A stretch of 64,000 nucleotides of DNA from Candidatus Nanoarchaeia archaeon (GTDB taxonomy: Archaea; Nanobdellota; Nanobdellia; SCGC-AAA011-G17; JAFCDX01). The first letter of the stretch is position 1; every line of letters begins with the position of its first letter. Where the stretch lies: NCBI GenBank assembly GCA_041651575.1, contig JBAZJB010000001.1, forward strand, positions 74,430 through 138,429, in the 5' to 3' direction. The notes beneath the pieces are model-generated. The model saw nothing but the letters and a program-made list of their open reading frames with translations, was not told the origin of the DNA and did no database searches. A program made the position numbers and the translations under genes. Shown in pieces: positions 13,050 to 41,184 of this stretch.

Positions 13050-13104
13050 AATCTATACAAACTTTTAACCTTTATAACTTTTTCTTAAGAGTGCTTTGGT
13101 GTAA

Positions 13105-13386: not shown

Positions 13387-13478
13387 TTTAATATATAGGT
13401 TATAGTATATAGTTATTTATAAATCTTTTGTTTATTAAAAGACTAAGTTTATATATAACCCTCTTGGTATGGTGTAAA

Positions 13479-13937: not shown

Positions 13938-14996
13938 ATGAAAAATTTAAAATTTATATTAGGACTTTTTATTCTATTAGTAATGCCTTTAACATTAGCT
14001 CACCCTGTACTTATGGGAGACTGTGATGGAAACGGTGTTCTTGAATTACCTGATTATATGTGTAATGAACTTATAATGGCAAATCAAATTACTAAAGCAA
14101 ATTGTTATATTCCAGGTTGTATGAATTTTGATTTTAATGGAAATAAAATACTTATTGAAATTCAAGATTATACAACTTTTCAGCAAGTATTTGTAAATCA
14201 TCAAATAATATATTGGATTCATGATTTAGATAATGATGGATTCGATTCAACTGATGCAACTGGTGCAATAGTAGATTGTAATGATGGGGATGCAACAATA
14301 TATCCTGGCGCAACAGAAACATGTAATAATGTAGATGATAATTGTGATGGTTCTATTGATGAATCTTTAACAATAGCAACAGTAAATATTCTTGGAGAGT
14401 GTTTAGCTAATACTCAAACTTGTTCAGCAGGAATATGGTCTGATGATTTAACCAATTATATACCTGTAGCAGAAATTTGTGATGCAAAAGACAATGATTG
14501 TAATGGTCTAATAGATGATGGATTAGTATTTTCTAATTATTATGAAGATATTGATGCAGATGGATATGGAAATTTAGCAGTAATACAAAATGCTTGCGCA
14601 TTAGTACTTAATTACGTTTTAGATAGTACTGATTGTATTGATAATGATGGAAATATACATCCGGGTTCAACTATGTGTGGATCTATAGATTATAATTGTG
14701 ATGGAATTGTAGACGCTTGTCCAGCAGTTGCTAGTTCTAGCGGTGGTGGAGGCGGTGGCGGAAGTTCAAGAGGTAAAGTAAAACCAGTTATAAATACAGT
14801 AACACCTGTTGTTCCAACTCCAGTTATAGAAGAATCTAAACAAGAGCCTGTTCAAGAAACACAAGAGAATAATTTAATTACAGGTGCAGCAACAACTGAT
14901 GCAGAAAATAGTGGAACAAGTGGTTTAACCATTGGTTTAATCCTTTTGGCATTAATTGTAGTAGCAGGTTTATTCTATTGGAAGAAATCTAGATGA
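13938..14996 (+). CDS. Cell-surface Cys-rich protein with MopE-like putative metal-binding repeats, Gly/Thr-Pro linker and C-terminal TM anchor
   Basis: Signal peptide. Repeats 'CNNVDDNCDGSIDE', 'CDAKDNDCNGLIDDG', 'CGSIDYNCDGIVDAC'. 'SSGGGGGGGSS' linker, Pro/Thr-rich stretch, C-terminal hydrophobic helix and 'KKSR' tail. Confidence 0.55.
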   Translation: MKNLKFILGLFILLVMPLTLAHPVLMGDCDGNGVLELPDYMCNELIMANQITKANCYIPGCMNFDFNGNKILIEIQDYTTFQQVFVNHQIIYWIHDLDNDGFDSTDATGAIVDCNDGDATIYPGATETCNNVDDNCDGSIDESLTIATVNILGECLANTQTCSAGIWSDDLTNYIPVAEICDAKDNDCNGLIDDGLVFSNYYEDIDADGYGNLAVIQNACALVLNYVLDSTDCIDNDGNIHPGSTMCGSIDYNCDGIVDACPAVASSSGGGGGGGSSRGKVKPVINTVTPVVPTPVIEESKQEPVQETQENNLITGAATTDAENSGTSGLTIGLILLALIVVAGLFYWKKSR

Positions 14997-15066
14997 TTTC
15001 TTTTAATTTTTTTCTTTTTAAATAACATAAGGAAAGTTTTAAAAGGTATTTAGTTTTACATTTAAA

Positions 15067-15657
15067 ATGAGTTTAATCACAAAAATTGAACAAAGTTTAA
15101 TTGAAAAACATCTATTGTATAATTCTGCTAGGGGTTCTGGTAATGGAGAAGAAGTTCAAATAGTTCATTTTAATGTTTTTCCTCAAGTAGGTTTATACAA
15201 TTTAATTCATTTACACTGTTTTTTTAATTATGTAAGAAAGGATTTGGAACCTACTACAGAAAAAGATTTTGATATAGAAGAAGGTAAATTAATTTTAGGA
15301 ACAATGAACTTTCAAGAAAAGTTAGGAATTTTAAAAGAAGTAACTACTAAAACACCAAGTATAAGCTTAAGAAGTAAAGACTTTATTCACCTTTATCCAA
15401 GATTAAAAACGTTGGAAAGACCGGTTAAAACTTCTGAACAAAAAACTCTTTTATCTTTTCTTAGTATTGATTTATATCCTAGTAAGTTAATTTATGCAGA
15501 TTTATTTTCTGAAAGAAAGAAGGAAATAACTGTAAAAGATCTTAAAAAATATGAATCAGAAGAATTAACAAGGTTTATGAAAGGGTTACATATTTCAAAA
15601 TATGAAGCAAAACAGATGCTCAGAAATCAAATGGAGTTTATAGGTATAACCTTATAA
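15067..15657 (+). CDS. Hypothetical protein
   Basis: ORF only. No recognisable motif. Confidence 0.3.
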   Translation: MSLITKIEQSLIEKHLLYNSARGSGNGEEVQIVHFNVFPQVGLYNLIHLHCFFNYVRKDLEPTTEKDFDIEEGKLILGTMNFQEKLGILKEVTTKTPSISLRSKDFIHLYPRLKTLERPVKTSEQKTLLSFLSIDLYPSKLIYADLFSERKKEITVKDLKKYESEELTRFMKGLHISKYEAKQMLRNQMEFIGITL

Positions 15658-15704
15658 AATTCTCTTAAGGAAACATTTAAATATAAATTCTATTAATAAA
15701 TAAT

Positions 15705-16268
15705 ATGTTTGATTTAGCAAAAACATTTTTAGCAATTGGAATTGCAGTAATTTTTGCAATATTTATCGGTTATGGACTTCATGTTGTTTATGAAATTCCA
15801 ACAGCGTATAGTTCTCATAATAGTGAATGTTCTAAGACATATAAATGTGAACAACAAATTTATGATTGTCAAAAACAATATACAAGTGATAGTGGAATGG
15901 CAAGAGATTGTTATTCTAGTGTTCCACAAACCCCCCAATATAAAACCTGTCAAGAAAATTTATTTAAATGTAATGAAGAAGCTACTAAAAAAAGTCCTCA
16001 GTATATTCATTCAAGAAATAGTTTTTACATTTTAATACTTATTGGAATAATTACTATAATAACTGGTCTTTTCTTATCAAGTTTAGAAGGAATTGGTTCT
16101 GGTTTGATAGGTGGAGGAGTTTTAGTTGTAATTTGGTCTTTATTTTACACAGCAAGATATTGGTCTACCTTGCCTAAATATCTTAAATTAGCTGCATTAG
16201 GAATTGTTTTAGTAGTCTTAATCTACTTTGGTTATAAAAAATTAGAAAGTAGACAAACAACTTTATAA
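15705..16268 (+). CDS. Hypothetical membrane protein with Cys-rich extracytoplasmic segment
   Basis: N- and C-terminal TM helices flanking a Cys-rich loop. Confidence 0.35.
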   Translation: MFDLAKTFLAIGIAVIFAIFIGYGLHVVYEIPTAYSSHNSECSKTYKCEQQIYDCQKQYTSDSGMARDCYSSVPQTPQYKTCQENLFKCNEEATKKSPQYIHSRNSFYILILIGIITIITGLFLSSLEGIGSGLIGGGVLVVIWSLFYTARYWSTLPKYLKLAALGIVLVVLIYFGYKKLESRQTTL

Positions 16269-16278
16269 ATTCTTTAAT

Positions 16279-16599
16279 TTAAACTTTTATTAACTGTTTA
16301 TTCTCTAGAACTTCTAAGTCTTGAATTAATAACTTATTAAATAACTCAATCAATTTTTTTATGGATTCATTTTTAACATTTAGTTTATACAATTGAGCTC
16401 TTCCAATTGCTCTTGTTTTAACAACCATATTATTTTTTATAAATTTTGGAAATAGTCTATGAACTGTTCTCCAGCTTACCCCAGAGTTATTTGCAATATC
16501 TGTTAAAGAATAATCAAAATCTTTACCTTCTATTAAAAATTCCAATATTCTAGTTGTAGGATTATTTCCCATGAACTCTCTAAATAGTGTATTTTTCAT
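16279..16599 (-). CDS. Winged-helix DNA-binding protein
   Basis: 'SLTDIANNSGVSWRTVHRLFPKF' HTH-like segment. 4-nt overlap with the HEPN gene. Confidence 0.45.
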   Translation of the reverse strand: MKNTLFREFMGNNPTTRILEFLIEGKDFDYSLTDIANNSGVSWRTVHRLFPKFIKNNMVVKTRAIGRAQLYKLNVKNESIKKLIELFNKLLIQDLEVLENKQLIKV

Positions 16600-17072
16600 T
16601 TTTTTTCAATTATAGCTTTTATTAAAGACACAAATTTTATTGCATTTTCAATTGATTCCTTCGCATAAGGGATATTTGCATTCGAATTGATATTATATGT
16701 AAATCTGCCTCTTTTCTTTTTTTCTGAATAAAAAATGTTTAAAAGAATTTCAGCTTTTTCTGCTTCTAGATCGTAAATTTCTAATAAATGCCTGTCAATT
16801 TTACCAGAATCAACGAGTCTTTTAAATTCATCATAAGTTTTTTTATGTTCTTCTGGAGCAGCGGTTTTTATTTCTTCCAATAACAAATAGGCTTTTGCTA
16901 CGTAAAAAATAGCATAATAACATTCTGAAATAACATCATTAAAAAAGGTTTGATTACTTTGTAATTTAAGAGTATTTTTTAATTCTTTATTTATAGATAT
17001 ATCAAAATTTGTTTTTGCAAGAATAATTTCATTTTCAGCTCTTTCAAGATATAATTTAACCATTGAATCCAT
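16596..17072 (-). CDS. HEPN-domain protein
   Basis: 'YYAIFYVAKAYLLLEEI' helix typical of HEPN. Overlaps the upstream MNT gene by 17 nt. Confidence 0.55.
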   Translation of the reverse strand: MDSMVKLYLERAENEIILAKTNFDISINKELKNTLKLQSNQTFFNDVISECYYAIFYVAKAYLLLEEIKTAAPEEHKKTYDEFKRLVDSGKIDRHLLEIYDLEAEKAEILLNIFYSEKKKRGRFTYNINSNANIPYAKESIENAIKFVSLIKAIIEKK

Positions 17073-17661
17073 TTTTGATAGCCTCCCTTATTAATTCATA
17101 ATAAATATATGCATTCTTTAAGATAATGTTGGATTTAAATATTTCCTTTCCATAATTCTCTTTTTCATCAAGCAACATTTCTATAATATCTTTATTATTA
17201 AATACATATAAATGTATTTTTGGATAAAATAATAAAGTTATATTTTCAACAAGTTTTTGAATATCTATTGCTTTTTCATGGTCTGGAATTACTATAACTA
17301 AATCCAAATCAGAACTTTTTGTTGCTTTACCTTTAGCATAACTTCCTGTAACAATTAAAAGGTATTGAGAAATCTCTCTAATAGACATTAATTTTTCATA
17401 GTTTGGTAATTTCTTCTCCATTGCTTCTTGTTCTTCTAAAAAGGATAGTTGGGCTATTGACTGAATTGTTAAGGGTAACGAGATAATATTAGAACTTCCA
17501 ATTTTTTCTGATTTTAAGATATTATTTTTTTCAAGATATTTTATAGCTTCATAAACTTTAGGATAAGCTTTATTGAGTTTTTTTGCTAGTTGTAATATAC
17601 TTGTTTTTAGAAAAATATCCTTTCTAAACAAATTTAAGATTCTTAGTTGGTTTTTTAACAT
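17056..17661 (-). CDS. Winged-helix plus minimal nucleotidyltransferase (MNT) domain protein
   Basis: 'GSYAKGKATKSSDLDLVIV' nucleotidyltransferase motif (hG[GS]...DhD). N-terminal wHTH-like region. Confidence 0.6.
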   Translation of the reverse strand: MLKNQLRILNLFRKDIFLKTSILQLAKKLNKAYPKVYEAIKYLEKNNILKSEKIGSSNIISLPLTIQSIAQLSFLEEQEAMEKKLPNYEKLMSIREISQYLLIVTGSYAKGKATKSSDLDLVIVIPDHEKAIDIQKLVENITLLFYPKIHLYVFNNKDIIEMLLDEKENYGKEIFKSNIILKNAYIYYELIREAIKNGFNG

Positions 17662-17771
17662 ATTTGTACCTTTTTAGGTATAACATTATACTCTTTTAGG
17701 TATATAAATCTTTCTTTTTTAAAAATGGTCTAATTTTATATATACTTGATTATTCAAATTAACATAGAAAA

Positions 17772-18503
17772 ATGTTAATAGATGCACATTGTCATTTAGA
17801 TTTTGAAGAGTTTGACAAAGATATAGATTTAGTTATAAAAAGATTTCCAGGCATAATAATCCAAAATGCAGTTAGTCTAGATTCTATGAAAAAATCATTA
17901 ATAATAGCAAAGAAATACAATAACGTTAAGTTAGCATTTGGTGTTTATCCAACAAGAGCTTTAGAATTAACTGAAAAAGACTTTGAAAAAGCATTATCTT
18001 TTATAAGAGAAAATAAAGACAATATAATTGCTCTAGGTGAAATAGGTTTAGAATACAAAGAAAGTCAAGAAAGAGAAAAACAAATAATTAATTTAAAAAA
18101 ATTACTAAAATTGGCAGAAGAAATAAAAAAACCATTAATAGTACATTCAAGAAAAGCAGAATTAGAAGTTCTAGAACTATTAAAAAATTCAAAAGTAAAA
18201 GTAGTACTACATTGTTTTAATGGAAATACAACCGCAGTAAGAACGGCTTTAGAATATAACTTTTATTTTTCAGTACCAACTAATATATCAAATTCAAAAA
18301 ACTTAAAAAAATTAGTAAAAATAGTTCCTATAGATAGAATTCTAACAGAAACAGATGCTCCTTATTTAAGTCCAATAAAAGGGCAAAGAAATGAACCTTT
18401 GAATGTTAAACATACAATTAAAGTAATTTCAGAAATAAAACATATTACAGAAGAAAACGTAGAAGAACAAATATACAGGAATTATAAACTAATCTTTGAA
18501 TAA
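17772..18503 (+). CDS. tatD: TatD-family metal-dependent hydrolase/DNase
   Basis: 'MLIDAHCHLDF' N-terminal motif and 'HCF' motif. Confidence 0.7.
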   Translation: MLIDAHCHLDFEEFDKDIDLVIKRFPGIIIQNAVSLDSMKKSLIIAKKYNNVKLAFGVYPTRALELTEKDFEKALSFIRENKDNIIALGEIGLEYKESQEREKQIINLKKLLKLAEEIKKPLIVHSRKAELEVLELLKNSKVKVVLHCFNGNTTAVRTALEYNFYFSVPTNISNSKNLKKLVKIVPIDRILTETDAPYLSPIKGQRNEPLNVKHTIKVISEIKHITEENVEEQIYRNYKLIFE

Positions 18504-19220
18504 TTTATCATAAATTTCGTCTTTGGGTATTTCTTTAAATTGTCTTAAACCTAATTTTTCTAATTTTATTTTTCCTATGGAAATTCTTTTTAGTTCTTTA
18601 ACAGTATAACCTAAAGCACCAAACATTCTTCTTATTTGTCTTTTTTTACCTTCTTTTATAGTAATTATTACTTCTTTAGGACCAATTTTATGTGCTTTTG
18701 CTGGTCTTGTTCTATAATCTTTATCATCCAATAAAATAGTTACTCCTGTATCTAATCTTTTTAAATCCCAATCTGAAATATCTCTATCTAATAAAACTTG
18801 ATAAGATTTTTTAATATGATTTTTTGGATTAGAAATTTTAGAAGCTAACATACCGTCATTAGTTATTATAATTAATCCTGAAGAATCTACATCTAATCTC
18901 CCTACAGTAAAACAAGATCTTCTTGTTGCTTCATCAACTTTTAATTCTTTTTCTATGATATTATAAATAGATTTTGGTTCGTTTTTCTGACAGCTAATCC
19001 TTTTTGGTTTGTTAAATAAGAAATATACTTTTCTTGCTGGTTCTAATCTTTCTTCATTATAATAAACATTGGTTTCTTTTGTATCAACTCTATAATTTGG
19101 ATTGTTAATTATTTCAGTTCTAATTTTAATTTCATTATTTCTTATAGCTTTCATTACCTCGTCCTTAGTCCTAAAAGCTCCTGATTTGGATAATACCTGA
19201 TGTAACCTTAATTTTACCAT
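18489..19220 (-). CDS. RsuA/RluB-family pseudouridine synthase with S4 domain
   Basis: N-terminal S4-like 'LRLHQVLSKSGAFRTKDEVMKAIRNNEIKI' and catalytic 'GRLDVDSSGLIIITNDG'. Confidence 0.65.
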   Translation of the reverse strand: MVKLRLHQVLSKSGAFRTKDEVMKAIRNNEIKIRTEIINNPNYRVDTKETNVYYNEERLEPARKVYFLFNKPKRISCQKNEPKSIYNIIEKELKVDEATRRSCFTVGRLDVDSSGLIIITNDGMLASKISNPKNHIKKSYQVLLDRDISDWDLKRLDTGVTILLDDKDYRTRPAKAHKIGPKEVIITIKEGKKRQIRRMFGALGYTVKELKRISIGKIKLEKLGLRQFKEIPKDEIYDKLFKD

Positions 19221-19562
19221 TTATTTATAACCAAATAATTTATTATATTCTTTGTGGTCCATAATTTTTAAAACAAATAAGAATATAGTAATGGTATCTC
19301 CTTCTATTGTATAAAGCATTCTCCAATAATTTGATAATTCTACCCTATATAAATTTTGAATTCCCATTTTTTTAAATTCAGAAGGAATTAGTTCTTTTTT
19401 AATGGGATCTCCATATTGCGGATTTTTCTTTAATATATCTTTTATTCTATTAAAAGAATTTAATATGGATTTTGCTTCTTTATCATTGCTTTTTTTTAAT
19501 TCTAAATAAGATTCTTCTGCATCTCCTTTTAAAAGTATTTTTACTTCTTTTCCAAAAAACAT
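19221..19562 (-). CDS. RelE/ParE-family toxin-like protein
   Basis: C-terminal 'LYRVELSNYWRMLYTIEGDTITIFLFVLKIMDHKEY' follows the RelE/ParE pattern. Confidence 0.5.
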   Translation of the reverse strand: MFFGKEVKILLKGDAEESYLELKKSNDKEAKSILNSFNRIKDILKKNPQYGDPIKKELIPSEFKKMGIQNLYRVELSNYWRMLYTIEGDTITIFLFVLKIMDHKEYNKLFGYK

Positions 19563-19563
19563 T

Positions 19564-19869
19564 TTAAACCTCTATAGTATTTTTTAACATCTTTTTTAAA
19601 TGTTCTGGTTCAGAATAAATCCATTGAATCCCCTTTGGCCCATAGATTATTTTTCCACTTTTCCAAAGATATTCTAAAATGAGTTTAAGAGTTTGATGCA
19701 TTATTTGTTTTGGAAGCCTTTTTTTTAATTCAGCTATAGAAATAGGAATATCATTATTTTTCTTTAAAAATTCTTCAACCATTAAAACAGTATTAAGATT
19801 AGGATACCTGAGTATAATATTATTCTTCTTTTCTATTAGTTCTGTTTTTTTAAATTCAAGTTTTTGCAT
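19564..19869 (-). CDS. Hypothetical small protein, putative cognate antitoxin
   Basis: Lies immediately upstream of the RelE-like ORF with a 1-nt gap, and is small. No sequence homology was recognised. Confidence 0.3.
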   Translation of the reverse strand: MQKLEFKKTELIEKKNNIILRYPNLNTVLMVEEFLKKNNDIPISIAELKKRLPKQIMHQTLKLILEYLWKSGKIIYGPKGIQWIYSEPEHLKKMLKNTIEV

Positions 19870-19969
19870 TTTATTTATATCAACTGATACTTATTATATA
19901 TCAAATAGTATATAAACCTTCCTGTTTTAATACAATAATTTTTATAAATAGTTATACCCTTTTAAATTT

Positions 19970-20500
19970 ATGCATAAAATCAAGGAAAAAATAAGAACAG
20001 TACCTCACTGGCCTAAACAAGGAGTTATGTTTAGGGACGTTACAACCTTGTTAAAAGATGCTCATGGTTTTAACTATATGATTGATAAATTGCATGAAAG
20101 GTACAAAGATTCTGGAATTGATATTGTAGTTGGGATTGAAGCAAGAGGTTTTATTACAGGTTCTGCATTAGCTCATAGATTAGGAATTGGTTTTGTACCT
20201 ATAAGAAAAAAAGGTAAATTACCTGCAGAAGTTATTTCTGAAGAATATGCTTTAGAATATGGAACAGATAAAATTGAAATTCATAAAGATGCAATAAATA
20301 AAGGAGATAAAGTTTTAATTGTAGACGATTTGATTGCTACAGGGGGGACAAGTTTTGCTGCATGTAGATTAGTTGAAAAACTTGGTGGAGAAATTCTTGA
20401 ATGTTCATTTATAGTAGATTTACCTGAACTTGGTGGAAAGAAAAAACTAGAACAAGCAGGTTATAAGGTTTTTAATTTAGTTGATTTCGAAGGAGAATAA
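19970..20500 (+). CDS. apt: Adenine phosphoribosyltransferase
   Basis: 'VLIVDDLIATGGT' PRPP-binding motif and 'GIEARGFI'. Confidence 0.75.
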   Translation: MHKIKEKIRTVPHWPKQGVMFRDVTTLLKDAHGFNYMIDKLHERYKDSGIDIVVGIEARGFITGSALAHRLGIGFVPIRKKGKLPAEVISEEYALEYGTDKIEIHKDAINKGDKVLIVDDLIATGGTSFAACRLVEKLGGEILECSFIVDLPELGGKKKLEQAGYKVFNLVDFEGE

Positions 20501-20919
20501 TGTCTTTTCAACCACATTATTAAAGAAATAGCCCTCATATTCCATACTTCTGTTACGCCTTTAACTTGTTTCATATAAATTGCATTTACTAAATCAAATA
20601 ACATATGGTAAGCTATACCTATAATTACACATAAAAATATTTCAGAAAAGAAACTTAATGCTAAAATTAAAATATGAAATTCTATTGTATGAAAAATATG
20701 TAATAAATCCCTATCTTTTCTTGGGTGAGGACTATGATATTCATAACATTTTTTCAAAGAAAAAGATTTGTTGTGAAAGATGCACCATAAATAATGGTCT
20801 ATATCAAATATCCAAGCAGAGAAAAATATAATTAAAGTATTTATTAGAGAAACATCAAAATAATTATATAAAATAAAACAAAAAGGTAAAGTTACCAGTA
20901 TATGTATTAAGGGTATCAT
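20461..20919 (-). CDS. Hypothetical His-rich membrane protein (possible membrane-bound metal-dependent hydrolase)
   Basis: Multi-TM with a His-rich core (DIDHYLW, HSPHPRK, HIFHTIEFH). Convergent 40-nt overlap with apt. Confidence 0.3.
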   Translation of the reverse strand: MIPLIHILVTLPFCFILYNYFDVSLINTLIIFFSAWIFDIDHYLWCIFHNKSFSLKKCYEYHSPHPRKDRDLLHIFHTIEFHILILALSFFSEIFLCVIIGIAYHMLFDLVNAIYMKQVKGVTEVWNMRAISLIMWLKRHYSPSKSTKLKTL

Positions 20920-21118
20920 TTAATTTACCTTTTTCTTCTTTTGGTTATGCTTTCTTCTAAGTCTTCAATTTTTTGTTCTAGGATAAATATTCTCCTTAAA
21001 CCATATAAATTTCCTAGACTTAAACCTAGAATTAAAAGCAACAAGTATGTATTCCCATCCATTACCATTAAATCACCTCTAATTAATATAAGAATTACTT
21101 ATTTAAAAATCTAACGTT

Positions 21119-21403
21119 TTAATTTTTATGAACACATTTAACTATTAAATCAGAATTATGTTCTTCTATGGTTACTTTTTCTAAATCATTTATAATTAAG
21201 TCATTTCCTGCAACCATATATTTTACGTTTCCATTAAATATCTTAACTTCTTTACATTTTGGAAATTCTAATATTTTTTTAGGGCAGTCAGGACTTTTAT
21301 GAGGATCATTTACATCACATAGTTCGATAAAAGGAGTTAATTTTCCAAGTTTTAAAAAGTTCTTTTTCCTTCCAATTATTGCAGATTTTGTTTTGTATTC
21401 CAT
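21119..21403 (-). CDS. Hypothetical protein
   Basis: ORF only. Confidence 0.25.
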   Translation of the reverse strand: MEYKTKSAIIGRKKNFLKLGKLTPFIELCDVNDPHKSPDCPKKILEFPKCKEVKIFNGNVKYMVAGNDLIINDLEKVTIEEHNSDLIVKCVHKN

Positions 21404-21404
21404 T

Positions 21405-22961: not shown

Positions 22962-23881
22962 TAGTTAATACCTTTTTTCTTACAATACCAAGTTATTATT
23001 CCTGCATTTGTTAAGAAAGTTGTAAATACATCTGCAATTAAAGCAATTAATATTATTGTGAACATTTCTTTAATAACAACTGAATTACTGAATATTATTG
23101 CTATTGTTAAAGCCGCTACTGCAGTTAGTAACATTGTTAATCCTGTTTTCATAGCATTCCACATTCTATCAAATATTTTTCCTTCGTGTTTTTTTAATGC
23201 TTTTGTTGTCAGTAATATATCTGTATCAATACTATAACCTATAATTAATAAAAATGCAACAATACCTGCACTTGAAATTTTCATACCCATTAAATTGACT
23301 GCTGCTAAAGCAATTACCATATCTCCAAATGCTGCTTGTATAACTGCAAGACTTGGAATAATATTTCTAAAAGTTGCAAATACAACAATACCCATTAATA
23401 TAAAAGCAAAAAATAAAACCATTAATAATTCTGAGTAAAAGGAACTTCCTAAAGAAGAACCTGTTTCTTCCATAGAATAATTTTGATCATCTAAAGTTAA
23501 ATCTAATCTTTTTTCTAAATAAGATTTTAATTCATCTGAGGTTTTTCCTGAAATTTCTACTAAAATCCCTATTTGTTTTCCTGTGCTTAAATCTGTTAAT
23601 GTTCTTACAGAAGCATCTACTAATTCTTTTTCAATTTCAGCAGTATCAACTTGTTTTTCAGTATAAATTGTAGCAGAAATACCTCCTTTTAAGGTAATAT
23701 CTTTGTTGATTATATCTCCTGTCTTATAATAAAACCCTATAATACTGACTAAAGATAGAGCTACAACTATTAAAGGTAAAACCATTAATAACTTATAATG
23801 CTTGTTGTAAAACTCTTCTACTTGCTGTTTTATCATATTTATATTGAAATTTAATGATTTAAAAACATTATGGAATTGCAA
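22961..23881 (-). CDS. secF: Protein-export membrane protein SecF
   Basis: 306 aa with a SecF-like 6-TM architecture. 1-nt overlap with secD. Confidence 0.6.
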   Translation of the reverse strand: MQFHNVFKSLNFNINMIKQQVEEFYNKHYKLLMVLPLIVVALSLVSIIGFYYKTGDIINKDITLKGGISATIYTEKQVDTAEIEKELVDASVRTLTDLSTGKQIGILVEISGKTSDELKSYLEKRLDLTLDDQNYSMEETGSSLGSSFYSELLMVLFFAFILMGIVVFATFRNIIPSLAVIQAAFGDMVIALAAVNLMGMKISSAGIVAFLLIIGYSIDTDILLTTKALKKHEGKIFDRMWNAMKTGLTMLLTAVAALTIAIIFSNSVVIKEMFTIILIALIADVFTTFLTNAGIITWYCKKKGIN

Positions 23882-24314
23882 AAAAGGTATTCTTACTAAG
23901 ATTATTATATATATCTCTTAGCTCTTTTCTTTCAGGCATATCTATATATTCTCCATATTCGGGATAATAAAATTTGGCCATTACATTAACTCCAATTATT
24001 GTAGGATTTGTGTCGCCCCAAATATATTCAATCTGCTCATCTGCGTCTATATTTGATTTAGGGTTATACTTTTTATCCCAATTATTATGTTTAATATTAT
24101 CTTTTTCTAATTCTAAAAGAATATTATCTAATACCTTATCAAGAATTTTATTAAAAATTAGTTTGTCTCCTGCACTTGGTTTAAAAGGTTTAGGGCATTT
24201 ATTACCAATAAAACTTATTCCATTAGCTCCCTTCATATAATAAAATACATCTATGGTTTGTGCACACTCACACATTCCTTTCAATATTTTTTCCCTATAA
24301 TAGTCTTTATTCAT
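23868..24314 (-). CDS. Hypothetical protein
   Basis: ORF only. Confidence 0.25.
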   Translation of the reverse strand: MNKDYYREKILKGMCECAQTIDVFYYMKGANGISFIGNKCPKPFKPSAGDKLIFNKILDKVLDNILLELEKDNIKHNNWDKKYNPKSNIDADEQIEYIWGDTNPTIIGVNVMAKFYYPEYGEYIDMPERKELRDIYNNLSKNTFFAIP

Positions 24315-24334
24315 TTATTAGAAGATAAAAAGAT

Positions 24335-24637
24335 TTATTTTAAGTCTTTTGTTTTGTCGTTTATTGTTTGTTCAAGTTGGTTTATTTCTTGTTCATTCAC
24401 TTGTTTTTTCTCTTTTTTTATATTATCTAATAATTTATAAGTTCCATCATTTTGTTGTAAAAAGATGAATTTAGTTCCAGCTGTATTTGTAACTACTATA
24501 TCTGAACTTCCTTTATTAGATAAATCTCTAACATAAGCACATTGTGGTTTAGTTATATATTGAGCAAGGTTTCCACCTATACCCACTCCTGCCATTAAAC
24601 TAATTACTCCTACTATTACATAATTTGATTCTGACAT
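24335..24637 (-). CDS. Small membrane-anchored protein with coiled-coil tail
   Basis: N-terminal TM (VIVGVISLMAGVGIGG). Conserved promoter element upstream (24679-24705). Confidence 0.35.
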   Translation of the reverse strand: MSESNYVIVGVISLMAGVGIGGNLAQYITKPQCAYVRDLSNKGSSDIVVTNTAGTKFIFLQQNDGTYKLLDNIKKEKKQVNEQEINQLEQTINDKTKDLK

Positions 24638-24678
24638 TTTTTTACCTGCATTTATTATACAAATATCGTATTAATTAA

Positions 24679-24705
24679 TATATAAACCTTTCTATTTGTA
24701 ACTAC
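24679..24705 (-). promoter_or_regulatory. BRE/TATA promoter with conserved upstream element (minus-strand reading GTAGTTACAAA..GAAAGGTTTATATA)
   Basis: TATA about 42 nt upstream of the ATG at 24637. Near-identical copies lie at 36198-36227 and 49083-49111. Confidence 0.45.
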
Positions 24706-24765
24706 TATTAAGTTATATAAATATCAATAATAAACCTTTAAAAAGAAATACTTTTTCCATAAAGA

Positions 24766-25293
24766 ATGATAGAAGTATTAAGACTGTCTCATAGAGTGTC
24801 TAGAGACCCTAGAATTAGCACTCACGTAGCTTTAACAGCAAGGGCTTTTGGAGCATCTAAAATATACTATTCTGGACAAAAAGACTCTAATGTAGAAGAT
24901 ACTGTTAATAAAATAACTGAAAATTTTGGTGGTCCTTTTGAAATAGAATATGTAAAAGATGCATTAAAACTAGCAGAAGAAAAAAAGAAAAAAGGTTTTT
25001 TTATAGTACATTTAACAATGTATGGATTAAAAATACAAAAAGAAATAAAAGACATTAAAAAACAAAAGAATATTTTAGTTTTAGTTGGTTCTGAAAAAGT
25101 ATTGCCTGAATTTTATAAAATTGCAGATAAAAATATTGCTGTAACAGGACAGCCACATTCTGAAGTAATGGCTTTGGGATTGTTTTTAGATATGTGTTTT
25201 GATAGAAAAGAATTAGATAAAAACTTTGATAATGGAAAAATGTTAATTATACCTCAAAACCTAGGAAAGAACGTTAAAAAGCTCAAAGAATAA
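24766..25293 (+). CDS. tRNA (cytidine56-2'-O)-methyltransferase aTrm56 (SPOUT family)
   Basis: 'MIEVLRLSHRVSRDPRISTHVALTARAFGA' matches the archaeal Trm56 N-terminus. Confidence 0.65.
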   Translation: MIEVLRLSHRVSRDPRISTHVALTARAFGASKIYYSGQKDSNVEDTVNKITENFGGPFEIEYVKDALKLAEEKKKKGFFIVHLTMYGLKIQKEIKDIKKQKNILVLVGSEKVLPEFYKIADKNIAVTGQPHSEVMALGLFLDMCFDRKELDKNFDNGKMLIIPQNLGKNVKKLKE

Positions 25294-25342
25294 ATTTATA
25301 AATAATAATATTCTAAGTTATATATAAAAAAGAGGGTGTTTA

Positions 25343-28300
25343 ATGAATAAAGTATTAGGTAATATAATCTTAATTTTTCTTGTTTTAATTCTATCTTCAG
25401 TTAGTGTAATTTCTTATACTTGTACAGAAACCGATGGAGGAAATAAACCTTACACTTATGGAGAACTTACTTGTTTAGAAACAGGCACTTGGATTTTTAA
25501 AGATAGTTGTGATTCTGCTACTAATTTAAGGGAATGGTATTATCGTAGTGATATAAAGGATTATTCTACTGCAAATTATATTTGTAATTGTATATATAAT
25601 CCAACTACTAAAGCTTCAACATGCTCTCAAGGATCTATTACTGGTTGTAGTAGTGGATTATGTGATACTAGTTTAATTGGTACTGGTGGAGGAACTGGAA
25701 CTTGTACATATACCTCATCAACTTGTCCAACTTGGTCAATATGTGCTTCTGCAAGTCAATATTGTACTGTTACTAATTGTAATTCATTAACTCGTTCTTG
25801 TATAACAGGAACTTCTTGTCAATATATTCCACAAACTTGTCCAACTTGGTCAGCTTGTTCAGGAAGTTCTCAATATTGTACTGCTCCAAATTGTAATTCA
25901 TTAACAAAAGCATGTACTTCTGGAACAACTTGTGCTTATACTCAAGTAACTTGTCCAACTTGGTCTACATGTTCTGGAAGTTCTCAATATTGTACTGCTA
26001 CAAATTGTAATTCATTAACTAAATCTTGTACAACTGGAACTGGTACAATAACTACAACAACAGGTTGTGTTTCAACTTCAGAAACAGAAGATACAGAAAC
26101 ATTATGTGCTAACAATGTTGATGATGATTGTGATGGTTCAATGGATTGTGCAGATAGCGAATGTAAAGATTTTTGTGCAACAACTTCAATTAGTCTTTCA
26201 AAAAATCCAACAATAAATATTTCTTTAATAAAAAATTATGGTCCTGGAGAAAAAATACAAGGTTTAATTAGTTTTAATAATTTAAAAGGATTACCTAGTC
26301 CAACAAAAGTAATAGTAGAAGTTGGGGATAAAAGAATAACAAAAAATTTAATTGATTTATGTAAAAATTGTATTACTGTCAAAGAATCTTATAATCTTTC
26401 TAATAAAGGACAAAATATTCCTGAAGAATCTAGAATTATTGAATTTTTAAAAGCAGACACTATAACAAAATATGCATTAGTTATACCTCAAGCAGGAGTT
26501 AATGATATACAAAAAGCAGAATTTAGTTTAACAGGTATTGCTAAAAATTCTTTTTATCCAAATTCTCCAAAATTAGATTTAAATCAAGCAGATGGAAAAT
26601 ATGATTGGGAATATACAGGTCCTTTGAAATTAGATGGTTCTGGAGCAGTTATTTATCAAAAAATTAATTCAGATTATTTAGCTTCATTAACCCCTTCATC
26701 AGAAACCTATAAAATTTATGGTGGAGAAAGATACGAATATTGTGAAAGAGTTAAATTACCTAAAACAAAAAAATATTTGTTAGAAGCTTATGTTAAAAAA
26801 ACTTCACAAACAGGTGGACAATTAAACTTTAGAATAAGACATGATGGAGCTCTTGGTTATTCTACAGAATTTGATGATAAAGAAGGAAACATTAAAAATT
26901 TAGAATGCACTGCACAAGAACCTTCAACAAGTTATTCTTGGAAATCCTGCGAAATAGATGTTTCTAATGTAGATTTAAGTGAAGAATATAATTTAATTTG
27001 TGTTTATTCAAAAGCAGATAATGATGAAGCTGCTTATTATGATTTAGCAACAGAAGATTATTCTTTAATAAATAAAGGATATAAATGTGATCCTGAAAAT
27101 TGTGTATATGCAGAAGGTTTTGATTATTTTATAAGAGCTTATTCTGCTGCCTTTGATCCTAAATTTAGTACAACAGAAAATGTAAATTTAATAAATTCCT
27201 TTTCCGAAGTTCAGTGTAATTATATTTCATCAATAGATAATATTGTTAATTGTATCTTTCCATTGACTTTTGTTTCTAATTCTCAAGGAAAATTACAATT
27301 GACTAATTTAAATTTAGAATATGGAGGAAGGAGTAGTTCTAAACTAATAGGAGTTAATTATATTCCAGAAACATTAAATTATGCTGGATCTTTGAATTTA
27401 ACAAGTAAAGATTTTATTAATTTAACAACTCCACTATCTGAAGGAGATTATAATTTAAAAGTAAAATTGATTTATGGAACATCACAATATGCTTCAAAAG
27501 AATTTGAAATAGAAGTTTTTCCAACACCAAGTGCTTCTTTAGATGTTCCTGAAACCGGAATTGTAAATACAGACATACCTTGTAATTTTAGTATAGATAA
27601 TTCAACAGGATTTAAATTTTCTTGGAGTTTTGGAGATGGAAAAAATGCAACTATTAAAGAAACAAAACATAGTTATGATAATATTGGATTTTATAATATA
27701 ACTTTACAAGTAACAGATCTTAATGGCGTTGTTTCTACTTTTGAAAAATCCATAGAAATTATTTCAGCAGAACAAACTTTGATTACTTTGCTAGATACTA
27801 CAAAGTTACAATTAGATAATGTATTACAACAATTAAATTCTTTATCTGGAGATGTTTCTTCTGTAATAACTACTTTAAATTTAAAACAAAAAATAAATGA
27901 TGCAAAACTTGCTGTTGATGGATATAATTCAGAATATAATTCTACTTTAATAATGACCGGAGTAACAAAAGAACAAAAAATTAGTGCAATATATAATAAA
28001 TTATTAACTTTGAGAAAAACTACTGTTTCACAAATTTCTATTTCCAATTTTGGTTTTAGTCCAAAGTTATCTATGCCTAATCAAATACCTGACCAACTAT
28101 TTTCTTCAGTAAGTGATATAGGAACTGCTAAGAACGATATTTTTGCAATACAAGATAAAATAGAGGTAACTTCAAAAGCTTATTTAGTTAATTTACAATA
28201 TCTAGCTGGAGAACAAGAAACTTTAAGATTGGTTAAGAAAACAGTTTCTGTTTCAGATATACCTCAAGGTTCTTCAATAGTAGAATATATTCCTAAAGAA

Positions 28301-28846
28301 GTAGAACAATCTATAACTGATAAAAATATTTTAAGTTCAGGATTTACTATAATTGCTGCAGATCCAATTATAAGTTGGCCTGCTTCTTCATCAGTAGAAA
28401 TAACTTATAAATTAAGTTCTGGAGATTTAGAATCTTTATCAAAAACAAGAACTTTCTTATTTGTACCTATTACAGAAGAACCTGTAGAAAAATATACTTG
28501 TGGAGACAATAAGTGTGATTTAGGAGAAGAAACAACTTGTAAAGCAGATTGTGAAATAAAATCTCCTACATTATTTTATATTTTTACTATTGTATTAATA
28601 ATTATTGTATTGGGTGTTGGAGGATATTATTTATATGAAAAATATGGGAAAAAATATCCTTTTGTAAACAAAGAATCAGAAATAAGATTAGAAGCTTATA
28701 TTAAAAAAGAACAAGCAAATAGATTACCAGACATACAAATTAAAAGTATTTTAGTTAAAAAGGGTTGGAAAAAAGAACAATTGGATTATGTTTTCAATAA
28801 AATTATAAAAGAAAAAAAAGCTAAACTCAATAGAAAATTGAAATAA
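25343..28846 (+). CDS. Large cell-surface protein: Cys-rich N-terminal tandem repeats, MopE-like motif, PKD domain, C-terminal TM anchor with basic tail
   Basis: Signal peptide. Three 38-aa repeats 'TCPTWS.C...QYCT..NCNSLT..C'. 'CANNVDDDCDGSMDCADSEC'. PKD signature 'FSWSFGDGKNAT...HSYDNIGFYNITLQVTDLNGV'. C-terminal TM 'LFYIFTIVLIIIVLGVGGYYLY' and Lys-rich tail. Confidence 0.6.
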   Translation: MNKVLGNIILIFLVLILSSVSVISYTCTETDGGNKPYTYGELTCLETGTWIFKDSCDSATNLREWYYRSDIKDYSTANYICNCIYNPTTKASTCSQGSITGCSSGLCDTSLIGTGGGTGTCTYTSSTCPTWSICASASQYCTVTNCNSLTRSCITGTSCQYIPQTCPTWSACSGSSQYCTAPNCNSLTKACTSGTTCAYTQVTCPTWSTCSGSSQYCTATNCNSLTKSCTTGTGTITTTTGCVSTSETEDTETLCANNVDDDCDGSMDCADSECKDFCATTSISLSKNPTINISLIKNYGPGEKIQGLISFNNLKGLPSPTKVIVEVGDKRITKNLIDLCKNCITVKESYNLSNKGQNIPEESRIIEFLKADTITKYALVIPQAGVNDIQKAEFSLTGIAKNSFYPNSPKLDLNQADGKYDWEYTGPLKLDGSGAVIYQKINSDYLASLTPSSETYKIYGGERYEYCERVKLPKTKKYLLEAYVKKTSQTGGQLNFRIRHDGALGYSTEFDDKEGNIKNLECTAQEPSTSYSWKSCEIDVSNVDLSEEYNLICVYSKADNDEAAYYDLATEDYSLINKGYKCDPENCVYAEGFDYFIRAYSAAFDPKFSTTENVNLINSFSEVQCNYISSIDNIVNCIFPLTFVSNSQGKLQLTNLNLEYGGRSSSKLIGVNYIPETLNYAGSLNLTSKDFINLTTPLSEGDYNLKVKLIYGTSQYASKEFEIEVFPTPSASLDVPETGIVNTDIPCNFSIDNSTGFKFSWSFGDGKNATIKETKHSYDNIGFYNITLQVTDLNGVVSTFEKSIEIISAEQTLITLLDTTKLQLDNVLQQLNSLSGDVSSVITTLNLKQKINDAKLAVDGYNSEYNSTLIMTGVTKEQKISAIYNKLLTLRKTTVSQISISNFGFSPKLSMPNQIPDQLFSSVSDIGTAKNDIFAIQDKIEVTSKAYLVNLQYLAGEQETLRLVKKTVSVSDIPQGSSIVEYIPKEVEQSITDKNILSSGFTIIAADPIISWPASSSVEITYKLSSGDLESLSKTRTFLFVPITEEPVEKYTCGDNKCDLGEETTCKADCEIKSPTLFYIFTIVLIIIVLGVGGYYLYEKYGKKYPFVNKESEIRLEAYIKKEQANRLPDIQIKSILVKKGWKKEQLDYVFNKIIKEKKAKLNRKLK
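25721..26062 (+). repeat. Three tandem in-frame 114-nt repeats (38-aa Cys-rich modules)
   Basis: 'acttgtccaacttggtc...' recurs at 25721, 25835 and 25949 with high nucleotide identity. Confidence 0.7.
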
Positions 28847-28880
28847 AAAGGTTTAAATATTTAAATTCTTAATTATTAAT

Positions 28881-30899
28881 ATGAAAAGAGGAGTATTAAT
28901 TATATTTTCTTTGTTGTTTATTTTGTTGAGTGTTAATTGTTTTGCATTTACTATTTCCGGGCATACTCTTTATAATGGTGACCCTTTTTCTGGGGTTAAA
29001 GTTAATATTAGTTGCCCTCCTTATTATTATGAAACTGATTCTGATTATTTAGGAGATTATAGTATTACTGACAATATAGCGTGTCCTAGTTATTATTTAA
29101 TTATCGCAGAAATTATTGATGAAGATCCTACTGATTCTGAAGGCACTTCACTTTATACGGCTAAGAAGATGAGTTATCCTGGAAGTAATCCTGTTAGTCT
29201 TGATTTAATTATGTGGATTGATATAGATAATGATCATTATACAATTTTAGGTTATTGTGCTTCTCCTTTATGTACTTGTCCTGGAGATCCAAGATGTAGA
29301 ATGGATTGTGTTGATACTCTAACTAATGATCCTGCAGGTTGTCCAACTTTAGTAAGTGGTTGTACATCAGCAACTTCAGCTTGTGCAATTTGTATAAATC
29401 CTGGCGCAACAGAAATTTGTGATGGAAAAGATAATAATTGTGATAATTCTATTGATGAAGGAGGAGTATGTCCTACAATAACTTATTATTGTAATACTGA
29501 TAATGATGGTTATTTTAGTTCAACCGCTTTAACTTGTAATACTTATAATTGTAAACCTACTTCTTGTCAACTTACTGCAGGAAATGATTGTGATGATACC
29601 AAATCAGATGATCCTACGGGTTGTCCTGCTATTAAAACCTCTTGTATTACTTCTACTTCAAAATGTGCTATTTGTATAAATTCTGGAGCAACAGAAGTTT
29701 GTGATGGAAAAGATAATGATTGTATCAATGGAATTGATGAAAATGTAAATTGTGGTACAACTTTATGTACGGCAGCAAACACAATAGGTTCATGTTCAAA
29801 TATTTGTGCAGGTATATCTGGTTGTTCAACTTGTATTCCTATATGTACTTGTCAAACTGGATTTTGTGATCAAGATAATAATATGGCAAATGGTTGTGAA
29901 ATATCAACAACAGAAATTTGTAATAGTATAGATGATGATTGTGATAATTCTATTGATGAAGATTTAACAAGGTATACCTATTATCAAGATTCTGATGGAG
30001 ATGGATATGGAAACTCTTTAGTTAATGTAACTACATGTGATTCTACTCCTCCAACAGGTTATGTAACGAATGATGATGATTGTGATGATACTAATCTTAA
30101 TAAAAATCCTGGGGCAGTAGAAATATGTGAAAATGGAATAGATGAAGATTGTAGTGGTTTTGATAAAACTCCTTGCGATTGTAATGACATTTCTAATTCT
30201 GAAGCATGTTTAAATAATAATGATTGTTACTGGGATTTTAGTGCTAATAGTTGTTTTGATTGTGCTCTTCCGCCTCTTTGCGCAGTATTTGGTTTAGATG
30301 AAAATTATTGTGAATCTAGAAGATGTGGATTACCTGTATGTGTATGGGATGATACTATTAATCCAAATGAATGTAAACAAGATGGAAATTGTGGAGAACA
30401 TGGTGGAGATTATGATAGTGATGGAATTTGTGATGATGCAGATAATTGTGTAGATATTTATAATCCAAGTCAAAATAATGAAGTATGTATGTGTTCGCAA
30501 GTTACAAATCAACCAAATACTCTTTGTGAAGATATTTTTGGAATAGGAACAATTTGTGATGAAGAATGTATTGGAGGTTGTTTTATTACTTCATCAGATT
30601 CTGCAACAGGAAAATGTTGTGTTTATGGAAGATGCGGTATTTCTAGTTATACTTTATCAGGAACTAGTTCATATGAATTAAGAAATAGCGAATGTATAAA
30701 TGCAAATGAAGAAGGAATAGGAACAAGATGGGTTGTTAAATTTAATCCCGCTACAGGAAATCAAATCGGAGAATCTTACCAAGAACCTTGTGCAATTCTT
30801 CCAAAACAAAAACAAGTTCCTTTTTTCAGTTTAATTTCAGCAATGTCAATAGTATTTATTCTAACTTTATTCTATGTATTTAAAAGAAAATCATTTTAA
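28881..30899 (+). CDS. Cell-surface Cys-rich protein with multiple MopE-like putative metal-binding repeats and C-terminal TM anchor
   Basis: Signal peptide. 'CINPGATEICDGKDNNCDNSIDEGGVC', 'CINSGATEVCDGKDNDCINGIDEN', 'CNSIDDDCDNSIDED', 'PGAVEICENGIDEDCSG'. C-terminal hydrophobic helix. Confidence 0.6.
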   Translation: MKRGVLIIFSLLFILLSVNCFAFTISGHTLYNGDPFSGVKVNISCPPYYYETDSDYLGDYSITDNIACPSYYLIIAEIIDEDPTDSEGTSLYTAKKMSYPGSNPVSLDLIMWIDIDNDHYTILGYCASPLCTCPGDPRCRMDCVDTLTNDPAGCPTLVSGCTSATSACAICINPGATEICDGKDNNCDNSIDEGGVCPTITYYCNTDNDGYFSSTALTCNTYNCKPTSCQLTAGNDCDDTKSDDPTGCPAIKTSCITSTSKCAICINSGATEVCDGKDNDCINGIDENVNCGTTLCTAANTIGSCSNICAGISGCSTCIPICTCQTGFCDQDNNMANGCEISTTEICNSIDDDCDNSIDEDLTRYTYYQDSDGDGYGNSLVNVTTCDSTPPTGYVTNDDDCDDTNLNKNPGAVEICENGIDEDCSGFDKTPCDCNDISNSEACLNNNDCYWDFSANSCFDCALPPLCAVFGLDENYCESRRCGLPVCVWDDTINPNECKQDGNCGEHGGDYDSDGICDDADNCVDIYNPSQNNEVCMCSQVTNQPNTLCEDIFGIGTICDEECIGGCFITSSDSATGKCCVYGRCGISSYTLSGTSSYELRNSECINANEEGIGTRWVVKFNPATGNQIGESYQEPCAILPKQKQVPFFSLISAMSIVFILTLFYVFKRKSF

Positions 30900-36894: not shown

Positions 36895-36895
36895 T

Positions 36896-38538: not shown

Positions 38539-38539
38539 T

Positions 38540-39502: not shown

Positions 39503-39509
39503 ATTTCAC

Positions 39510-41111: not shown

Positions 41112-41184
41112 CTTACCTAATTTAATATAAAAATTGTATATATAAATAGGTTTCGAATTTAGAAAATTGGTAAAATTAGGCTTT

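Follow-up and report, generated by a model that had tools for sequence, protein, structure and literature searches.

In the methanotroph protein MopE* (PDB 2vov), the high-affinity Cu(I) site consists of His132, His203 and the kynurenine at position 130 (W130), and the first 46 residues of the protein cannot be seen in the crystal (Ve et al. 2012, PMC3423442). In that study a MopE* fragment without the first 24 residues lost binding to a Cu(II) immobilized metal affinity chromatography (IMAC) column and CaCl2 shielded MopE* from proteolysis; moreover, the electron paramagnetic resonance data cited there gave no support for coordination of copper by cysteine (PMC3423442). In the C-rich domain of teneurin-4, three Ca2+ are held by eight acidic residues in a geometry that is like that of thrombospondin type-3 (T3) repeats and of LDL-A modules, with three disulfides as a brace (PMC9058538), and the core of the Pfam family PF11617 was aligned with the teneurin motif by Tucker et al. 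(PMC3278476). Here, proteins with PF11617 units and their neighbors were analysed in a window (the whole stretch of DNA under study) of 64,000 nucleotides (nt) from Candidatus Nanoarchaeia archaeon, a DPANN archaeon (assembly GCA_041651575.1, contig JBAZJB010000001.1, positions 74,430-138,429 of the forward strand). DPANN archaea are generally episymbionts and depend on contact with host cells. The main subjects are three open reading frames (ORFs), ORF1, ORF2 and ORF3, all present at the coordinates in Table 1, which a first-pass annotation had described as a single family of anchored Cys-rich surface proteins with MopE-like repeats, with ORF4 (62601-63494) as an unanchored relative. No literature on the function of the repeat, or on Cys-rich surface proteins of DPANN archaea, was found.

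In a Pfam scan of ORF1-4, for which the gathering score of PF11617 is 27 bits, ORF1 matched PF11617 with 63.5 bits over three stretches and ORF3 with 63.9 bits over four, and the accession that the first-pass annotation had named was therefore correct. A hidden Markov model (HMM) of the unit, 65 positions long and built from 2,118 repeats of other organisms with the window proteins left out, gave 97 bits for ORF1 and 95 bits for ORF3, which holds four to five units, and a repeat search on the DNA alone (family D1) found the same copies of the unit in both genes as the HMMs did. The consensus of the unit (~65 amino acids, aa) is YxDxDGDGYG...C..P.GYV....DCDD....PGAxExCDGxDNDCDGxIDE; its invariant and near-invariant residues are Asp, Cys, Pro, Glu and Gly in two alignments that include ORF1 and ORF3 (A1 and A4), and the tandem pattern DxDxDG ... 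DCxD ... PGAxExC..D.DC.G..D is present in both proteins. More than 5,155 significant matches were returned with ORF3 as the query, and the named relatives among the matches listed were mostly from Myxococcota, Patescibacteria and the cargo of the Bacteroidota type IX secretion system (T9SS), with Heimdallarchaeota and Woesearchaeota also represented. ORF1 and ORF3 are each 100% identical to an NCBI record named 'putative metal-binding motif-containing protein [Candidatus Nanoarchaeia archaeon]', and ORF3 was additionally located on a Logan contig of SRR8542065. These data indicate that ORF1 and ORF3 are additional members of a known, very widespread and already annotated repeat family, so that this finding adds little by itself. 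The proposed expansion of the repeat was not borne out, as the window has two such genes only, with three and four to five units. The source was correctly taken to be archaeal, in agreement with the NCBI lineage names and with an archaeal aTrm56 gene that adjoins ORF2 (24766-25293); the GC content of the window is ~27% (0.267).

Each of ORF1-3 has a signal-like hydrophobic N-terminus and exactly one C-terminal transmembrane (TM) helix by sequence and hydropathy, and for ORF1 a helix was also modelled by AlphaFold2 (AF2) at aa 328-351. The signal peptide and C-terminal anchor are consistent with the surface location that had been proposed for all three. The absence of the PGF-CTERM signal likewise stood, with no sorting-signal model matched above its cut-off; GVDTG_CTERM reached 16.4 bits in ORF1 and 15.1 bits in its orthologue against a cut-off of 29. 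No PGF-CTERM-type archaeosortase or exosortase signal was matched, and no sortase was found among the multi-TM ORFs tested in the window. The orthologue of ORF1 (P0122, 85% identical) is encoded in a sister metagenome-assembled genome (MAG; GCA_028716945.1, locus L002), in which the gene order is the same as in the window. The low-complexity linker, which had been assigned to all three proteins, was found in ORF1 only, where it is composed of Gly, Ser, Thr and Pro, and not in ORF2 or ORF3.

The units of ORF1 and ORF3 differ in completeness (Table 1). In ORF1, the best Pfam stretch of unit 1 is aa 113-142, unit 2 is preceded by an insert containing Cys, and unit 3 was modelled by AF2 with a predicted local distance difference test (pLDDT) score above 94 and almost no regular secondary structure. 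The membrane-distal domain of ORF1 had no Pfam match even at E≤10, and dockerin, carboxypeptidase-regulatory-like and other domains were rejected for the N-terminal parts of ORF1 and ORF3 for want of Pfam support at E≤10; ORF1 gave weak EF-hand-sensor matches only (E 0.04-0.15). Directly upstream of ORF1, at 12741-13829, are three small ORFs, of 102, 93 and 116-133 aa, each with a hydrophobic N-terminus and three to six Cys, which had no family matches and possibly encode small secreted or membrane proteins. In ORF3, a Cys-rich insert separates the DCxD half of units 1 and 2 from the PGATExCDGKDNxC half (unit HMM, 27.2 and 16.9 bits for the C-halves and 9.0 bits for an N-half), and the two units come from an internal duplication of 282 nt (direct repeat D4, 180 nt, 72%). 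Unit 3 of ORF3 scored 15.8 bits and unit 4 scored 66.3 bits with the unit HMM, the best Pfam stretch being aa 400-427. Relatives outside the lineage align to ORF3 at aa ~165-430 only, with the best identity, 50-60%, over unit 4. ORF3 had no match in the PDB search; its aa 509-533, which have no Pfam match, match the T3-like repeats of a bacterial OmpA-family protein only (5wtl, E 0.006), and no homologues of its C-terminal module were found outside the lineage.

ORF2, by contrast, had no PF11617 match and reached just 10.9 bits (E 0.007) with the unit HMM, so the shared MopE-like repeats hold for ORF1 and ORF3 and not for ORF2. The reported PKD domain is present in ORF2, and it is therefore not attached to MopE repeats. 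One full-length relative of ORF2, 83% identical, was found in the sister MAG, and other matches cover the PKD domain alone. When aa 280-745 were taken as the query of an exhaustive HMMER search, 1.84 billion representatives yielded just 25 clusters, with phmmer E-values between this region and family members of 2e-53 to 5e-4. Five family sequences were inspected (884-908 aa), and all have the architecture of ORF2, namely a signal peptide, a ~450-aa beta core, a PKD domain, a helical/beta region, a CGDxxC...C.xDC knot, a TM helix and a KKGW...QIDYVF tail, without the Cys/Thr-rich N-terminal extension; matches to ORF2 start near residue 12-48 of each relative across the family. The ORF2 core was modelled by AF2 with a pLDDT of 83.8, and Foldseek matched it to generic beta-sandwich strings (alpha-2-macroglobulin/complement, SorCS2, SraP, GhpA) with a whole-chain template-modelling score of ~0.1, while the PKD domain of the AF2 model matched collagenase PKD domains (TMt ~0.8). 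An HMM of the knot, built with ORF2 left out, recognised ORF2 with 25.7 bits (E 1e-7). Altogether, these data reveal that ORF2 is a rare beta-sandwich/PKD stalk protein of a different family from ORF1 and ORF3, and a stalk rather than an enzyme. The supposed Cys-rich relative, ORF4, matched nothing in the set by Pfam, the unit HMM, BLASTP against ORF1-3 or the knot HMM, which also disposes of the by-eye idea that ORF4 shares the knot of ORF2; the grouping of three proteins and a relative in one family thus does not hold.

The two ends of ORF2 set it apart further. Its cytoplasmic tail had been described as short; it extends for ~69 aa after the TM helix and carries a KKGW...QLDYVF motif that is conserved across the family. 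At 28637-28843 and in the family members P0257-P0280 the pattern YYINFY.G...LF....DL..L..YI...L..G.....I...L.KKGW...QIDYVF runs for ~70 aa after the TM helix. The sole database match of the family tail was a weak one to DUF2621 (20.7 bits, cut-off 27.7), and its features suggest an intracellular interaction or signalling module. At the other end, the lineage-specific extension contains three tandem repeats of 114 nt at 25700-26041 (Tandem Repeats Finder: period 114, 3.0 copies, 77% matches) and a single acidic motif, CANNVDDDCDGSMDCADSEC, which scored 22.9 bits with the NCBIfam model acid_disulf_rpt (NF033662; aa 249-276, cut-off 41). The top PDB match of aa 255-278 was the teneurin-4 C-rich domain (7plp, E 0.049), with seven of the eight Ca2+-ligating acidic positions kept. 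ORF2 and ORF3 are separated by 34 nt on the same strand and are probably co-transcribed.

To compare strains, two genomes were available, the window and the sister MAG; a search of genome contigs for further strains gave the sister MAG alone, and no metagenome contig with the ORF3 C-terminus was found, the closest homologue of the adjoining ATPase being 56% identical. Nine neighboring genes are 85-98% identical to the sister at the protein level, but the positional orthologue of ORF3 is only 42% identical. By blastn, identity was 95% across ORF2 and the 58 nt at the start of ORF3 that encode the signal peptide, no similarity was found over 28939-30507, and similarity returned at 90.6% from 30508 through the C-terminal module and anchor of ORF3 and the ATPase. 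BLASTP of ORF3 against the sister aligned aa 1-19 and 434-672 only, and the sister allele had neither a PF11617 nor a unit-HMM match. The cassettes of window and sister are 523 and 526 aa long with 11.1% and 13.7% Cys, respectively, and both are acidic. The segment of the sister protein that corresponds to the T3-like repeat matched COMP (8e-21) and TSP-2 (9e-16), and its sequence identifies it unambiguously as a T3 repeat. Another part of the sister cassette resembles the N-terminus of ORF2 from the window (BLASTP E 4e-9), which suggests shared modules. A 'C.(E/D)TDGGNKPYTYG ... C' module with CPTWS-type Cys/Thr repeats after it is found in different genes of the two strains, at 13438-15018 of L002 (the sister allele of ORF3) and at 25415-25819 in ORF2 of the window; no Pfam model covers this module.

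In ORF2, strain differences are confined to the N-terminal ~200 aa, where the sister sequence is scrambled relative to the window and has one copy of the 114-nt repeat instead of three. In ORF1, identity to the sister is 63% over aa 31-60, 43% over aa 61-90 and 87-100% over the MopE block. The membrane-distal part is therefore the part that differs between strains in ORF1, ORF2 and ORF3, and in ORF3 the whole ectodomain (~1.57 kb), with its MopE units, has been exchanged in this comparison of two genomes, whereas the signal peptide before it and the anchor after it are conserved. The variability of the distal parts suggests that the tips are interaction surfaces. No silent cassettes, flanking repeats, recombinase or template like that of a diversity-generating retroelement (DGR) was found in the 64-kb window. 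A DGR or a repeat-mediated mechanism was rejected, as no near-identical direct repeat pair in the window involves ORF1-3; the differences are of whole cassettes and not adenine-specific point changes, and no reverse transcriptase turned up among the window proteins scanned, which were not all of the window ORFs. The ORF3 cassette has a GC content of 0.321; the values are 0.319 in ORF1, 0.331 in the sister cassette and 0.267 in the window as a whole. Recent transfer of the cassette from a high-GC bacterium was likewise rejected, given this GC content, a best outside identity of 50-60% over one unit, and no identifiable donor.

We consider it probable that ORF1 and ORF3 are secreted proteins of the cell surface, rich in disulfides and held by a single-pass anchor, in which the PF11617 units, by analogy with known Ca2+-binding motifs, would be Ca2+- and disulfide-stabilised modules that form a spacer or an adhesive surface. 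Each unit would be a small module with little regular secondary structure and two disulfides, with Ca2+ bound at the invariant Asp/Glu clusters, namely the DxDxDG loop and the D-x-D-N-D-C-D-G-x-x-D-E cluster, and strings of units could make a rigid, protease-resistant spacer or adhesive surface that holds distal domains off the membrane. ORF2 would serve as a beta-sandwich/PKD stalk with a conserved cytoplasmic tail, to which a Cys-rich tip with a teneurin-like motif was presumably added in this lineage. Ca2+ is favored because the ORF2 motif leads to teneurin-4, with whose motif the PF11617 core has been aligned, ORF3 has a T3-like repeat, the sister has T3 repeats, MopE* is stabilised against proteolysis by CaCl2, and acyloxyacyl hydrolase (AOAH), apparently the unit profile's only ordered solved relative (5w7a-f, E 0.005-0.014), has been described in general terms as having calcium-ion-binding activity. 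The high pLDDT with almost no regular secondary structure in ORF1 unit 3 is what a model of a knot stabilised by ions and disulfides would be expected to show. A capacity for disulfide formation is indicated because the window encodes a fusion of a CPHC thioredoxin to a DsbD/CcdA-type domain. This protein (58307-59401, + strand, 364 aa) starts with a signal-like segment; CPHC is the DsbA-type active site of its thioredoxin/glutaredoxin-like domain, and its ~6 TM helices, with Cys in INPCEF and LLPCTSGP, are similar to the membrane domain of DsbD/CcdA; from its sequence it is a plausible candidate for an extracytoplasmic thiol-disulfide oxidoreductase that would be relevant to the local Cys-rich exoproteins.

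Several points weigh against the Ca2+ model. Alignment of the unit profile to the teneurin C-rich domain by hhalign gave a probability of 2% over 12 aligned columns; teneurin is therefore kept as an analogy and homology of the PF11617 unit to that domain was rejected, so that the Ca2+ model is an analogy at the level of the motif. The AOAH match to the unit profile is marginal. The IMAC data for MopE* hint that the acidic start of the motif aids weak Cu(II) binding, and a role with a divalent metal other than Ca2+ is thus possible. Disulfide formation is an assumption, given that the habitat may be anoxic. Finally, the P-type ATPase that adjoins ORF3 adds nothing to the model. This protein (30891-33461, - strand, 856 aa) is of type IIA and scored 708.5 with the SERCA-type Ca2+ model TIGR01116 (cut-off 703.4), and its gene is convergent with ORF3, with an overlap of 9 nt. 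The two genes also adjoin each other in the sister MAG; however, no MopE-unit ORF was found at 83 loci with homologous ATPases (810 kb), and the adjacency therefore carries no signal and a functional link between ORF3 and the Ca2+-ATPase was rejected. Even so, Ca2+-stabilised, disulfide-braced modules are, by inference from analogy, the best model that we can offer for the PF11617 units.

The first-pass annotation had offered Cu or Ca as the ligand, and Ca fits better of the two. Copper acquisition by ORF1 and ORF3 is unlikely, and we regard it as improbable that the repeats serve in surface capture of copper or another transition metal, whether by sequestering Cu or by handing it to the cell. 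The Pfam name Cu-binding_MopE and the NCBI product name speak for such a role, as does the only link of the motif to copper, namely that the Cu(II) IMAC column no longer retained MopE* once 24 N-terminal residues, a stretch that overlaps the beginning of the motif, were missing. MopE* is the sole solved protein matched by ORF1 below E 0.01, but the alignment, from unit 1, covers residues 5-44 only; ORF3 does not align at all, a 30-unit profile matches residues 12-47 (E 1.6e-5), and the PF11617 match within MopE* is residues 5-47, so neither ORF1 nor ORF3 reaches the copper core. Because the motif includes none of the Cu(I) ligands of MopE* and its own region of the crystal is disordered, the family name does not denote a demonstrated copper site. 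Furthermore, no His or Met is conserved in the unit, whose Cys are most readily taken for disulfide partners, thousands of proteins from non-methanotrophs carry the motif, and there are no copper-handling genes nearby, the adjoining ATPase being of the Ca2+ type IIA and not of the Cu type IB. That the 'copper-binding' label of PF11617 is without structural basis matters when metal metabolism is inferred from annotations in DPANN, Candidate Phyla Radiation, Myxococcota and Bacteroidota genomes.

A possible but clearly less favored explanation is that the proteins are adhesins for recognition of a host or partner, with their specificity in exchangeable distal cassettes; binding of a ligand on the host surface, and not metal binding, would then be under selection, and the MopE block of ORF3 would be one allele in a recombining pool of cassettes. 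The replacement of aa 20-542 of ORF3 between flanks that are 91-95% identical argues for this, as do the near-equal length and Cys content of the cassettes, the module common to the sister cassette and the ORF2 N-terminus, the divergence of ORF1 and ORF2 at their distal ends only, the resemblance of the ORF2 stalk to known adhesins, and the episymbiotic lifestyle of DPANN archaea. Set against this are the comparison of two genomes only, the lack in the window of silent cassettes, flanking repeats, a recombinase or a DGR-like template, and ORF1, in which the MopE units are the conserved and not the variable part; moreover, adhesins of this kind are compatible with Ca2+-stabilised modules and do not exclude them. 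A role as structural material alone, in a wall or as a spacer in the manner of an S-layer scaffold that binds no specific ligand, with strain differences that reflect relaxed constraint or phage-driven surface turnover, would account for the repetitive, low-information Cys/Asp modules, for the fusion of the PF11617 unit in bacteria to many unrelated domains and sorting signals (T9SS, MYXO-CTERM, lectins), and for the finding of no enzymatic domain in the Pfam scans. We give it very little credence, because the genes are single and hold three to five units, their products are TM-anchored type-I proteins and not lattice formers, and sharp breakpoints with conserved flanks, together with the kept cassette length and Cys density, look like exchange and not decay. 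The Ca2+/disulfide model and the exchange of cassettes can also be read jointly, with ORF1-3 as modular, tip-variable adhesins of an episymbiont whose whole ectodomain cassettes, built of interchangeable Ca2+/disulfide micro-modules (MopE units, 'TDGG' and 'CPTWS' modules, T3 repeats, teneurin-like C-rich motifs), would be swapped by recombination while the 5' end for the signal peptide and the 3' end for the anchor stay conserved; this is a speculative reading that we put forward with considerable doubt. If true, it would represent a surface-variation system that tunes host or phage recognition in DPANN archaea. The role in host interaction that the first-pass annotation had proposed is plausible, and the strain-variable distal tips are consistent with it. 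The attachment proteins of DPANN archaea are poorly defined, and these three proteins are concrete candidates for strain-specific host recognition. What is new here is the replacement of the ORF3 ectodomain and the variability of the ORF1 and ORF2 tips, a modest lead, from two genomes, to proteins of DPANN host contact.

Elsewhere in the window, a protein of 1547 aa (50450-55093, + strand) has hydrophobic segments at ~aa 45 and 1476 and two Laminin_G_3/concanavalin-like lectin domains (179 bits), and is a large candidate surface protein unrelated to the MopE proteins. An apparent type-IV-pilus or archaellum-like locus at 36457-43971 (- strand) encodes two T2SSF-type membrane proteins, for which PF00482 was read on the sister orthologues, and a series of small ORFs whose hydrophobic N-termini are conserved, with the repeat family D6 at 42206, 42660 and 43232; it may be relevant to host attachment. 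The segments 15680-17771, 19223-19894 and 23884-24755 have no DNA similarity in the otherwise syntenic sister, which has AAA_14/DUF4143 genes in place of 15680-17771, and pairs of HEPN and nucleotidyltransferase genes are located differently in the two genomes. These segments are small islands that vary between the strains, possibly toxin-antitoxin or defence cassettes.

Table 1. Positions in the window of ORF1, ORF2 and ORF3 and of the features within them.
Feature	Position (nt)	Strand	Remarks
ORF1, 352 aa	13938-14996	+	signal peptide, variable N-terminal domain, three PF11617 units, Gly/Ser/Thr/Pro linker, TM anchor, tail WKKSR
ORF1 membrane-distal N-terminal domain, aa 22-94	14001-14219	+	strain-variable; AF2 pLDDT 45-60
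ORF1 MopE unit 1, aa 95-142	14220-14363	+	DLDNDG ... DCND ... PGATETC..DDNCDGSIDE; unit HMM 40.4 bits
ORF1 MopE unit 2, C-terminal half only, aa 175-195	14460-14522	+	unit HMM 22.1 bits, profile positions 40-64
ORF1 MopE unit 3, full canonical, aa 201-261	14538-14720	+	unit HMM 52.4 bits, positions 2-61
ORF1 low-complexity linker, aa 266-328, and TM helix, aa 329-348	14733-14981	+	sequence, hydropathy
ORF2, 1167 aa	25343-28846	+	signal peptide, Cys/Thr-rich N-terminal extension, beta-sandwich core, PKD, helical/beta region, CGDxxC knot, TM, Lys-rich tail
ORF2 lineage-specific Cys/Thr-rich N-terminal extension (~255 aa), aa 25-279	25415-26179	+	strain-variable
ORF2 single acidic double-disulfide motif CANNVDDDCDGSMDCADSECKDFC, aa 255-278	26105-26176	+	teneurin C-rich-like
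ORF2 PKD domain, aa 746-804	27578-27754	+	PF18911 (PKD_4) 41.2 bits (aa 751-804), PF00801 26.2 bits
ORF2 juxtamembrane CGDxxC...C..DC knot, aa 1053-1070, TM helix, aa 1076-1098, and tail, aa 1099-1167	28499-28843	+	
ORF3, 672 aa, 10% Cys	28881-30899	+	signal peptide, N-terminal domain, MopE block, T3-like repeat, C-terminal module, TM, tail KRKSF
ORF3 strain-variable ectodomain cassette, aa 20-542	28939-30507	+	blastn breakpoints
ORF3 MopE units 1 and 2, aa 113-194 and 202-288	29217-29744	+	variant units
ORF3 MopE unit 3 (C-half, aa 339-361) and unit 4 (full canonical, aa 367-428)	29895-30164	+	
ORF3 thrombospondin type-3-like repeat GDYDSDGICDDADNCVDIYNPSQNN, aa 509-533	30405-30479	+	phmmer vs 5wtl, E 0.006
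ORF3 conserved C-terminal module, aa 544-647, and TM helix, aa 648-667	30510-30881	+	sister alignment

Compared to MopE*, in which one N-terminal copy of the motif aligns to aa 97-139 of ORF1 (E 0.006), ORF1 and ORF3 show no likeness to the MopE/CorA beta-sandwich core that holds the His132/His203/kynurenine-130 Cu(I) site and a structural Ca2+ site, and the two proteins are functionally not MopE homologues. The motif is seen with a metal in no experimental structure, and Foldseek found no solved analogue of it. In mammalian AOAH, the N-terminal segment of the large subunit (5w7a-f) contains DCNDSD..VYPG....D.NCNG, which aligns to positions 23-58 of the unit profile; unlike ORF1 and ORF3, AOAH has a single copy within a eukaryotic lipase, and no mention of a link between AOAH and PF11617 was found in the literature searched. 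The acidic motif C..xxDxDxDGxxDCxDxxC of the teneurin C-rich domain (7plp) and of NF033662 has a likeness in aa 255-278 of ORF2 that scores below the family cut-off, and there are no YD shell, NHL or toxin domains. Similarly, the pattern DxDxDGxxDxxDNCxxxxNxxQ of the T3 repeats in COMP, TSP-1, TSP-2 and the OmpA-family protein 5wtl has a likeness in aa 509-533 of ORF3; the copy in the window is a weaker one and stands alone, and the protein that holds it is archaeal and anchored in the membrane. The closest likeness is to other PF11617 proteins ('putative metal-binding motif-containing protein', 'MopE-related protein'), with which ORF1 and ORF3 share the unit, the invariant Asp, Cys, Pro and Glu, tandem copies in an extracytoplasmic setting, and the combination of units with other adhesion-type domains. 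However, ORF1 and ORF3 have three to five units where the bacterial proteins inspected have many tandem copies, a plain C-terminal TM helix as anchor where the bacterial proteins have T9SS or MYXO-CTERM signals, and a Cys-rich insert within two units of ORF3. Unlike most hosts of PF11617, the organism is a low-GC DPANN archaeon, although examples from Woesearchaeota and Heimdallarchaeota already exist.

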